Shown here: piece after piece, positions 41,701 to 47,704 of the stretch | Numbering within the stretch: position 1 is the first letter of the stretch | How the letters are laid out: each line of letters starts with the position of its first letter | Assembly: GCA_051294375.1 (NCBI GenBank) | Contig: CM119264.1 | Location: 25,978,450 to 26,042,449 of the forward strand | Reading direction: 5' to 3' | Source: Paraspadella gotoi | Taxonomy: Eukaryota > Animalia > Chaetognatha | DNA length: 64,000 bases | Position numbers and translations under genes: made by a program | The notes under the pieces: generated by a model | The model's database searches: none | Told to the model about the DNA's origin: nothing | Seen by the model: the letters and a program-made list of their open reading frames with translations, nothing else

Positions 41701-44700
41701 GCTCAAATTTTCGTCAATAGTCGTGAAATTTGTAAAGAAAGAATAAAACCAGAATTGATACATGTTAATTATTTTGAGATATGTATTATATTTACATATG
41801 CAGACTGGTTTTATTCTTCAATACAATTAGTGCGTTTACGCGTTTGTAAAATGCCATGAAATGTAAAATTAATACATTACGTCGGCACTTTAATCATGAA
41901 AGAAAAGGACACAAACTGGTGTTTCTTTCCTGCCTTAGAAACGGTTTTATACAGTATGGAAGCATGCTCAAGGTTTCAATAATCCCTGGTTAAATTAACA
42001 AAGGTATTTATTTATAGATTATTGGTCCTTGCCGTGACGTTTTCAGCGATATCATCGAATCGTACAAAAAATGATTCGTGACTTTATGGTTTAAAGGTTA
42101 AAAAAAAAATCGTGAACAAATTATAAAATCAAAACCGATATCTACGAACGTCTGCCATTAATTAACTCATAATAGCATCTTCACTTTATTCAGTCTTCGT
42201 CGGTATCAAATATTGCAGTGATTGTCGTTTGCATGAGTGCCGTTTTTATCGTCGTTGTCGTTTCATGAATCATTTGAATTTCAGATTTTATTTTGTTTCG
42301 ATATATTTTCGCGGCTGATTCTTTTAAGTGAAAGTTTGTCTGATGTTTTCTTTTTCAGAAAACGCGCCACCACGCCCACCGCCGCCGGAGCAGGAGGCGC
42401 CACCGAGACCCCCTTCGCCTGTGGAGATGCAAACGGAAGAAATATTCTCGCAACTACCGCAGTCGAATCAACCAATCATGGTGAGTTCTTTGGGTGGTAT
42501 ATGTCTTTTTAGATTGAAAACGTGAGTGGTTGGGTCATCGTTTACTGTGCGTATTCGAGTATTGAAGCCAAATGAGTCCTCATTTGCATTAAAGTTAAAT
42601 TTGCCATCGCTCCCACCCGTGATTTGAAAAACGCCATCGAAGAATTTCGCCTTAAATTGTAAGGATGGACTGATTAGGTTATTTTTCTCTCCCTTTAATT
42701 TTTTAAACTAATTGGTTATTTTTTTTTCTATTTTTTTTTAAACAATCTAAAGGAGAAGAAAATCTTGTTTATTAGTTAGTTTATTCAATTATTTTTTTTC
42801 TCCTGTCGTCAAATGATTCGAGTTTCTTCTCGAACTCTGCGTCACTCTCGACACGGAATCCAAAAGTTGTTCTGCTGTTCGTCGCCGGTCGCCGCCAGGA
42901 AAGCCTCGTCGCTCACCCTCGAGGATGTTGGCGGCGATGGAACTTCCCCGGATGTGGTTGACAAGGACGGCGAGAAACGGTTGGCGCCGCGTCGGGGCCG
43001 CGACGAGGGCGGACCGAGCACCGCTCGCGACGCCGACGGGCGAAACGGCGTCGAGGGCGCCGACTTGGAGGCGGATCGGTTTGGAGTCGAAAGCGTTTCG
43101 TCTTGGCCGCGGATCGGGGCGAAGGTTGTTGTTGTCTTCGTCGTTGTCGTCGTCGTCGTCTTTTTTACAATGCTTTATAACAATCAGGAAAAAAGGAGAA
43201 GAAAAAGAAAGAAAAGAAATAAAAAGTGCGTTTCGTCGCTCTCTGTCGGCGGAGATGGAGAGACGGAAACAAAAGGTAATAGTAAGAAAATGAATGAGAA
43301 GTTGATCGTTGAGCCGATATAAAGTGAATCGCGGCGAGGTAAAGGAAGAGTAGAAGATTATTATTAATTAATTAATGATTGGCAGCGGTCCGACGTCGGG
43401 CCGAAGGAAAATCCAGAGAAGAATCTTCTCAAACGCGCGAGACAACGAATTCCTGCTGTTCCCTTCAAGGTCGGCGTAATATGATCGTCGTCGTCGTCAT
43501 TGTCGTTTGGTTTTAATTTAGGTTTCTCGAGTTTTTCTCGGATAGCTTTTAATGAAATTCTTCTTTAAAAAATTCTTCTTTAAATATTTTTCGCGACTAA
43601 CTTTACCCCTTCGTTTTCGAATTATAATGCGACTCTCCTTTTATATCAAACCCCCACTTCGACATCCTGCATCTTTTCCCCAACCCCGAAAAAAAAACCT
43701 TCCACCTTGCAAAGCAGAAGCGCGCTCGTCTTTTGTTTGGGAATCTGCGATCAGCTCTACCTGCCTCTACTCGTGCCCTCCGAAGGACGTTTTCCTCTAC
43801 GTGTCATCGACGCATGCCTTGACGCCGGCGACCAGCGGCGCCGTCGTCCGCTCCGTCGATCGAGCGATCGATTCCAAAGCGGCGCAAGTCCTCGTCGCCG
43901 ATCCACCGACGCCGGCGTCGTCCGCGCCCTCTCCTATCGCCGAGAGTGAACCCGGAACCGTCGGCGCCAGATTCGGTGCAGATTTCGACCGACATCTCCG
44001 CGGGATTTTGGTCAGAGTGAGACGCCGACAATTGGCGGCGCGACGGGCGTCGGTCGGGGCGGAAGCGGCCGAGGAGGAGGCGTGGGTGGCGCCGGGCGAG
44101 GCGCGGGTGGAAGCAAAAGTCGTCGTCGATGAAGGCGACGCCGTAATGTCAAAATTCGGCGTTCCCGGCGCCGGCGATTCCTTCGTCTCTCCGGCGGCGT
44201 CGCGACTCAAAGACGCGGACGAAGGGATTGACGACGCCGACTCGGAGCAGATGGGATCGAAGTGCCTGGTGGGCCAGGAGGCGCTGGGGCTGGAGGAGAT
44301 ACTGAACGACGATTCGTTGGGGTTGAGAGACATTATCAACCCGGACGTGTTGGCGTTGGCGGAAGTGTCGGAACTCGTGGAACAAGTCGAGGAATGCATC
44401 GGTCAGAGTCGGGCGCGAAGCCTTTTAAAGTTGTTGTTATTCATGTTATTGTTTAGTTTTTCGAAGGATAGAAATCTTCTGGAAGATGCTGCATTGCAGC
44501 TGCAATCGATGACCTTCCCTGATTAACTCACCCTCTCCTCTCTTTCTCTCCGCTTGCCTAATTAAAATCTTCTGTTTATGGCAAAACTGGTAAAGATGTC
44601 GCTAAATGTTGTATCACGAAACATCATTGATTCCCTTTCCATCGGTTGTCGTCATTTTGTTTGTTGTCCTCCCTTCTCCACACGCCCACCGCGTTTTCTC

Positions 44701-47700: not shown

Positions 47701-47704
47701 ATGA
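32732..47704 (+). CDS. VCL: Vinculin (D3, D4, Pro-rich linker, tail). Core exons: 32732-32923, 34119-34262, 34495-34677, 35011-35184, 35496-35682, 42359-42480, 45137-45252, 45315-45438, 45545-45635, 46549-46665, 47655-47704
   Basis: [149 protein letters not shown]; vinculin-type end [10 protein letters not shown]. Splice phases are consistent. Confidence 0.93.
36593..38870 (+). CDS. Three candidate phase-1 cassette exons in the vinculin linker intron: 36593-36951, 37854-37961, 38628-38870
   Basis: AG/GT-bounded GC-rich islands of ~360, 108 and 243 nt. The third is open as written ([25 protein letters not shown]...); the first two need a consensus of the duplicate copies (31376-31733, 32576-32684). 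Confidence 0.5.
39362..39961 (-). CDS. Nested antisense two-exon gene (39961-39838, 39630-39362), 130 aa, with acidic and His8 tract
   Basis: ATG...RTFL G|GTGAGG intron ...TTCCCAG|TT; phases match; MQRPKRGS...[14 protein letters not shown]...[36 protein letters not shown]...RRRKT*. Confidence 0.6.
40516..41538 (+). CDS. Candidate alternative 5' exons feeding the vinculin linker exon (40516-~40732, 40980-41312, 41471-41538)
   Basis: 40980-41312 (phase 2) splices to 41471-41538 ([23 protein letters not shown], phase 1) and then to 42359 in frame; the first junction's phase is unresolved. Confidence 0.45.
42813..44858 (+). CDS. Five-exon novel N-terminus (42813-43124, 43188-43275, 43386-43469, 43718-44401, 44713-44858; 438 aa) splicing in frame to vinculin tail exon 45137
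   Basis: All junctions are GT-AG with matching phases (0,1,1,1,0) and no stops over 1314 nt. It ends ...[15 protein letters not shown], paralleling the canonical ...SNQPIM|QAAHALH. Confidence 0.6.
45659..45784. repeat. (GA)n microsatellite; similar GA/CT tracts at ~1-102, 2603-2740, 8319-8381, 9216-9292, 14491-14578, 30415-30513, 35689-35777, 40898-40975, 57634-57728, 58482-58581, 63018-63093
   Basis: Directly visible dinucleotide runs. Confidence 0.97.
45833..45877 (+). CDS. VCL: 45-nt symmetric cassette exon in the vinculin tail ([15 protein letters not shown])
   Basis: TTAG|...TCAG|GTGAAA, phase 1/1, open; it inserts between ATMLGAQ and [11 protein letters not shown]. Confidence 0.65.

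Follow-up and report, generated by a model that had tools for sequence, protein, structure and literature searches.

Five-helix actin-binding bundles that are braked by an upstream helix occur in the alpha-catenin tail and in the THATCH domain of talin and HIP1R. Vinculin works by clamp and release, its tail binding actin only after the head has been prised off, and helices of talin, alpha-actinin and alpha-catenin act through head domain D1 (accessible portion of PMC10354202). The PIP2 site is shielded by the acidic strap, which also touches the head, and in metavinculin a 68-aa insert in a head-bearing chain replaces both this strap, by a more acidic one, and helix 1 (accessible portion of PMC12180986). 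The C. elegans gene deb-1 yields, by alternative transcription, two isoforms, b (369 aa) and f (358 aa), which start with a 49-aa first exon and are found in nucleus and cytoplasm (accessible portion of PMC6527391). Headless vinculins were therefore already known.

The window, that is the whole stretch of DNA analysed, comprises 64,000 nucleotides of the chaetognath Paraspadella gotoi. An earlier note on it had predicted a headless vinculin-tail isoform of about 603 aa, with metavinculin as background; the DEB-1 precedent had been missed. As far as the accessible account of DEB-1 b and f goes, these forms share with the present one an N-terminus from exon(s) of their own, the missing head and a C-terminus common with the long forms. 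They differ in that a single 49-aa exon is joined to about 310-320 shared residues, whereas here five exons encode 438 aa followed by 165 shared residues, and the joint falls at helix 1, so that the proline-rich linker and the native strap are lost, and a head-like helix and a new strap gained. The metavinculin comparison holds for the strap only: exon choice swaps the N-terminal strap of the tail for an acidic one (here FDLSDPIE for the NQPIM end), but metavinculin keeps the whole head and replaces helix 1 with helix 1', while the present form loses the head but retains helix 1. Compared with full-length vinculin (PF01044; PDB 1ST6, 1TR2, 1RKE), the five-helix tail is the same, but the D1-D4 head, the pocket for talin, alpha-actinin and alpha-catenin and the full head-tail clamp are missing.

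In the literature covered, largely that outside subscription journals, no description was found of a headless isoform with a replaced strap and a head-like helix. On that basis the combination of the three appears new, headless isoforms and strap replacement each being known.

Exon chain and RNA joints

Five new exons in intron 42481-45136 amount to 438 codons and, with five tail exons, encode 603 aa without a stop. All five new introns have GT-AG ends. Features of the locus are:

42359..42480, + strand: last canonical proline-rich/strap exon, ending NQPIM, skipped by the new isoform (tblastn with relative P0012, 97% over 33 aa; joint 42480>45137, depth 123)
42719..42812, + strand: likely 5' UTR of the new transcript (42745-42812 covered by contig 3 with no differences; 42719-42744 inferred)
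42777-42779, + strand: in-frame TAG inside the likely 5' UTR, 12 codons before ATG 42813
42813..43124, + strand: new exon 1, coding from the ATG (MIRV...) (contig 3; relatives likewise start Met-Ile, one of them MIRV)
43188..43275, + strand: new exon 2, with a 12-residue basic tract at 43191-43226 (3' joint listed; 5' joint deduced from the length of contig 3)
43386..43469, + strand: new exon 3 (both joints listed, depth 786)
43718..44401, + strand: new exon 4, ending with the first 18 residues of the acidic helix (from 44347) (both joints listed; open reading frame P0143 breaks at the same place, after ECI-G)
44713..44858, + strand: new exon 5, with the end of the acidic helix (to 44735), a serine-rich linker and the replacement strap FDLSDPIE (joints 44401>44713 and 44858>45137; kept in relatives)
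45137..45252, + strand: shared tail exon 1, helices 1-2 (Pfam PF01044, E 2e-14; RNA joints)
45315..45438, + strand: shared tail exon 2 (RNA contigs; tblastn with P0012)
45545..45635, + strand: shared tail exon 3 (RNA contigs; tblastn with P0012)
45833..45877, + strand: optional 45-nt in-frame tail exon encoding 15 residues (left out of the main contig; relative P0004 has an almost identical peptide)
46549..46665, + strand: shared tail exon 4 (tblastn with P0012; loose-end letters of a contig)
47655..47704, + strand: last tail exon, with the stop codon (tblastn with P0012)

Taken by itself, the sequence leaves this chain ambiguous, as many other in-frame GT/AG boundaries stay open. A permissive search of the real intron gave a chain of 517 codons, and at least 438 codons were reached in one of 40 locally shuffled introns. 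The chain is fixed by the RNA joints of one sequencing run. Four runs were used, none of them recorded as RNA; X1 made up 0.74 of the sampled words and was taken as RNA because its contigs skip ordinary tail introns at GT-AG sites. RNA support therefore means this single run, in the form of contigs, possibly from the same strain as the window. In the other runs, X2 to X4, at 80% likeness, the new exons were not usefully covered, apart from one 170-nt piece of X2 at depth 2.6.

In X1, GT-AG joints were found at 43275>43386 and 43469>43718 (depth 786 each), at 44401>44713 (depth 767) and, onto the tail, at 44858>45137 (depth 811), the junction whose absence, according to the earlier note, would have refuted the prediction; the prediction has withstood this check. 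No differences from the window were listed in the region of the new exons. The joint of intron 1, which adjoins a masked repeat, is absent among the joints listed, five more being hidden, and was deduced from the length of contig 3. Two pieces of this 1262-letter contig map to 42745-43125 and 43716-44401; the 169 letters that separate them match exons 2 and 3 in length once the overlaps are subtracted, and intron 1 is therefore spliced too. Thus the five exons do chain in phase from ATG 42813 to the tail exon, the last new exon ends SDPIE where the canonical one ends NQPIM, and the basic tract (43191-43226) and the acidic block (44347-44735) are both part of the chain, as predicted. Downstream, a loose contig end at 45636 continues into the letters of 46549, skipping 45833..45877.

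The gene also yields the canonical form, by joint 42480>45137 at depth 123. The two junctions with the common acceptor sum to 934, near the depth of the tail contig (1018), and 811 stands against 123; since contig depth does not rank expression levels, both comparisons are hints only. A gene model with the canonical junction alone would overlook a form that may be the chief product of the locus.

Upstream in the window there are indel-rich tandem duplications, one of them running through vinculin head exons, so that the assembly is noisy there; residues 1-462 of the vinculin head lie outside the window.

The same fusion in relatives

A protein search with the tail exon found 260 proteins, of which the best 120 were examined. 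The top matches (90-93%) included a full-length vinculin of 967 aa that has the canonical NQPIM, P0012. Also among them were forms without a head: P0004, P0005, P0007, P0009 and P0010, of 518-695 aa, and the partial P0003. On P0010 the Pfam vinculin match covers 423-592 only. Among the 143 proteins collected, cluster members included, DL[ST]DPI replaces QPIM before tail helix 1 in 11. None of these has a head, and six are long, Met-started and headless (the five above and P0126). All long headless relatives start Met-Ile. P0005 and P0007 are probably chimeric assemblies, with arthropod-type C-termini, and were therefore counted with P0004 as one type. P0143, an open reading frame without Pfam match, ends its acidic motif at ECI-G, where exon 4 of the window ends, which fits a conserved intron position. 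Thus the head-free tail fusion, which the earlier note had proposed to seek in relatives, is encoded there. The sources of the relatives include a marine catalogue, which together with the spiralian-type tail may suggest arrow worms as the lineage.

In a tree of 21 tail rows, rooted at midpoint, the window tail and six relative rows grouped in one long-stemmed clade (support 100/99), with an annelid among the neighbouring rows. The window tail is 96-97% identical to the tails of the modelled relatives, P0128 and P0010. Outside the clade the form was not seen: 60 metagenome loci without a clade member (best full-tail match 83%) gave no headless form and no match to the motif profile at E 1, and the canonical strap was kept in all 13 of their long tail-bearing open reading frames.

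The relatives came only through the tail. With exon 4 alone as query, no match was obtained at E 1 among 7989 scored candidates, nor at E 0.001 among 1.84 billion representatives. A motif profile matched 7 of 7991 candidates, but three of these had built the profile and two were near copies of one of those three, which leaves P0003 and P0143 as independent.

N-terminus, acidic helix and control of the tail

The N-termini of the headless forms hardly align (window exon 1 against P0010 gave E 0.098 at best), and with model pLDDT mostly under 40 the first 370 residues or so are predicted to be disordered. Two blocks are kept across them: an acidic helix of 26 residues, and FDL[ST]DPI directly before helix 1. 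The latter, conserved in the relatives, takes the place of the N-terminal strap of the tail; in two models, P0128 and P0010, FDLSD aligns from strap residues 881-884 of the vertebrate tail onwards.

Behind the strap the tail is ordinary. One exon is enough for a PF01044 match at E 2e-14, the tail is 62-74% identical to solved vertebrate tails (62-71% for tail crystal structures), and the five-helix tail matches Vt at Z 21-23, the models of the relatives superposing on it at Z 22-23 with rmsd 2.3-2.4. A 13-residue stretch in helix 1 is common to both forms, and the net charge of the tail is +7. From this likeness the predicted isoform would be expected to bind actin.

The acidic helix corresponds to isoform residues 372-397, is amphipathic (hydrophobic moment 0.34-0.42), has a net charge of -5 to -7, and is 58-88% identical in pairwise comparisons of four distinct versions. 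A profile of the four, run against P0012, peaked at residues 140-165 in head domain D1 with a score of 39, the next score being 16. A peak of 39 anywhere in P0012 was reached in 2 of 1000 column shuffles and in none of 1000 pattern-keeping shuffles. Each version alone also peaks at 140-165, and position 140 was best in 51 of 55 full-length vinculins (179 in the other 4), related sequences that are not independent counts. Among 155,054 six-frame windows of the 60 loci, the top 8 were head segment 140-165 and the best unrelated score was 25. In the similarity test for a copy of head residues 140-165, the helix came out above other helices and decoys. Profile-profile comparison (hhalign) gave the same register but weakly (probability 0.8%, E 0.066), no vinculin was found at E 10 among solved structures, and the first match in the atlas was a vinculin cluster (0.77, a lead only). 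The acidic helix is thus probably a diverged copy of head residues 140-165. Likeness to head helix 1 was considered and rejected in favour of 140-165, helix 1 ranking 3rd in P0012 and 11th to 46th in the other 54 vinculins.

The tail of the isoform had been taken to be uninhibited. This is doubtful, because the conserved helix resembles a head segment and because in one of two models it docks on the head-binding face, at the head helix 1 site. In that model, P0128 (276 aa, mean pLDDT 66, about 50-63 in the helix), model residue 40 aligns to chain residue 5-6, and the alignment to seven full-length vinculin entries covers 181-209 residues, versus 161-173 for tail-only crystal chains; read from these ranges, the helix lies where head helix 1 meets the tail. 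The docking was not seen in the full-length P0010 model (593 aa). Across models the pLDDT of the helix is about 44-63, and the docking site, head helix 1, differs from the segment that the helix resembles in sequence, 140-165.

On balance we lean, with modest confidence, towards a helix that folds back on the basic tail (+7) and, with the acidic strap, brakes it lightly. Transcription from an internal promoter near 42720 and splicing of the five exons onto the tail exons would give the predicted 603-aa protein (about 63 kDa) without head or linker. Since this protein has no D1 pocket, helices from talin, alpha-actinin or alpha-catenin would not be needed. In place of the full head clamp, which talin or alpha-catenin opens, there would be one tethered helix (net -7) and an acidic strap, a weaker switch that would yield to actin, to PIP2 or to phosphorylation in the serine-rich linker. 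As in alpha-catenin and THATCH, a helix that may restrain the bundle would lie N-terminal to a five-helix actin-binding bundle; here, however, the putative brake resembles a segment of the vinculin head and is separated from the bundle by a serine-rich tether of about 40 residues.

Alternatively, the tail could be constitutively open and the helix bind elsewhere: to the D1 pocket, like a talin site, to alpha-catenin, or to itself, giving a dimeric actin cross-linker. The P0010 model, which leaves the helix off the head site, is consistent with this, and the strongly amphipathic pattern would suit another partner, talin-type sites being single D1-binding helices (accessible portion of PMC10354202). 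Yet the shorter model docks the helix at the helix-1 site, the charges of helix and tail are complementary, and Pfam lists no family that matches the helix, only a weak unrelated match at E 0.47. We consider an open tail possible but the less probable reading.

If the helix is a head-derived brake, a minimal regulatory element of vinculin can be named; if it is not, it marks a conserved site for some other partner. Either way, a conserved and apparently abundant form without head and linker points to an animal that uses the vinculin tail under different control. A bolder version of the brake, which we regard as speculative, is a "mini-vinculin" in which a copied piece of the protein's own head, as a tethered helix, replaces the four-domain clamp, and which is talin-independent, self-regulated and outnumbers the full-length protein. 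If this is true, vinculin autoinhibition would have a natural minimal model here, and the form might underlie lineage-specific muscle or junction attachment.

Compatible with either view of the helix is an isoform that works mainly in the nucleus, comparable to DEB-1 b/f in meiotic cells, with the basic tract serving for import. The NLS-like tract named in the earlier note is present, 11-12 of 12 residues being basic in the window, P0009 and P0010, and it recurs in two of three distinct Met-started relative N-termini; DEB-1 b/f are moreover present in nuclear fractions (accessible portion of PMC6527391). However, the P0004/P0005/P0007 type has no such tract, its position varies among the others, the architecture of DEB-1 b/f is different, and the new junction, several times as deep as the canonical one, hints at a bulk structural protein. 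A chiefly nuclear role is accordingly unlikely.

Start of the new transcript

An internal promoter, with a transcript start near 42720, is likely, although contigs cannot show a start and its position was deduced. In X1 the bin 42550-42705 has depth 0, and the new transcript has no cover upstream of 42706. No AG is present between 42678 and 42751, and the first 26 letters of contig 3 fall at a masked T-rich stretch; these letters are therefore probably genomic, which places the start near 42720. The promoter part of the prediction thus stands as likely.

Contig 3 also bears on a further reading, in which the new exons form a large metavinculin-like cassette in full-length vinculin, placed after the proline-rich exon and ahead of the tail and entered for instance through AG 42779. 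Donor 42480 and acceptor 42779 are both of phase 0, and arthropod vinculins accept long linker inserts (a 1711-aa open reading frame in locus L005). But contig 3 is unbroken over 42745-43125 and spans the in-frame TAG, so that it cannot encode head plus insert. Mean bin depths, 67.9 for 42394-42549 and 589.6 for 42706-42861, are exactly those of contigs 2 and 3 alone, so that a 42480>42780 contig has no place, and the head is absent from all 11 proteins with the new strap. A minor cassette form could escape notice, since contigs drop rare forms; as the account of the exons, the cassette is very unlikely. The new isoform thus lacks the defining combination of full-length vinculin, D1-D4 with the proline-rich linker in a single chain, and given spliced contigs, the upstream in-frame stop and the same architecture in relatives, we are highly confident that the headless exon architecture of about 603 aa is real.

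That the exons belong to a nested transcript of their own, or reflect an error of assembly, is extremely improbable: despite the indel-rich duplications upstream in the window, X1 and the window agree over the new exons, intron 5 holds no poly(A) hexamer, relatives encode the same fusion, and joint 44858>45137, with its depth of 811, refutes a nested transcript ending before the tail, unless X1 comes from another organism.

Some smaller observations concern the introns. Pfam transmembrane-family matches on P0002 correspond to a valine run of unspliced intron 1, and Rfam gave no match in 40000-50000. Pairing between intron ends had been reported for the new introns, and the complementary strings exist, but it does not exceed chance. 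For each of 10 introns the duplex energy was compared with that of 500 end-shuffles. Fewer than 5% of the shuffles reached it in just two cases, new intron 1 (1.4%) and an ordinary intron of the tail (3.4%); the other four new introns lay at 16-65%, and GGGCG, one of the strings, occurs 8 times in the host intron.

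Retained introns and an optional tail exon

The first intron of the new exon chain (43125-43187) is 63 nt long and free of stop codons, and it was removed by splicing in the main contig of X1, a public run treated as RNA. Its retention would place a valine-rich, membrane-anchor-like stretch directly ahead of the basic tract; a GTC/GTT repeat probably accounts for this stop-free, valine-rich reading. The fourth intron of the chain was kept in one contig (44372-44741, depth 74), and the protein would then end ahead of the vinculin tail. The main X1 contig also left out one exon:

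45833-45877, in-frame vinculin tail exon, 45 nt

A nearly identical counterpart of this exon is found in P0004, a relative of the headless type, and the annelid protein P0017 and the tick-like P0033 carry a tail insert at the matching position.

Other candidate exons of the vinculin gene

Judged from sequence, further alternative exons may be present upstream:

40516-40732, runs from an ATG to a GT donor whose phase matches the proline-rich exon at 42359; may be another alternative first exon, the second in this gene
36480-37118, 38510-38965 and 40980-41312, GC-rich open stretches with splice-like ends within linker introns, candidate alternative exons

Starting at 40516-40732 would give a shorter headless form, predicted to resemble the C. 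elegans headless isoforms deb-1 b/f more closely than the new isoform does. A long linker is encoded at metagenome locus L005 (131-5263), whose arthropod-type vinculin of 1711 aa has a low-complexity linker insert of about 750 residues and retains both head and canonical strap.

Duplications and neighbouring genes

Part of the window is tandemly duplicated, with copies 90-95% identical:

1-4959
7616-24125
24131-26557
26559-37972

The copies differ mainly by small indels, two 25-N gaps are present, and one duplication includes vinculin head exons, with frameshifts. These duplications are likely assembly artefacts. Neighbouring features were noted:

49200-51820, minus strand, beta-tubulin gene by its translation, running towards the 3' end of vinculin
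11616-12521 and 19930-20820, exons in two copies, presumably adenosine-deaminase-like by their motifs

A repeat ORF at 59177-59653 is, we assume from motifs, beta-thymosin-like, and the intronless, helical-looking ORF at 56364-56984 (207 codons) was assigned to no family.
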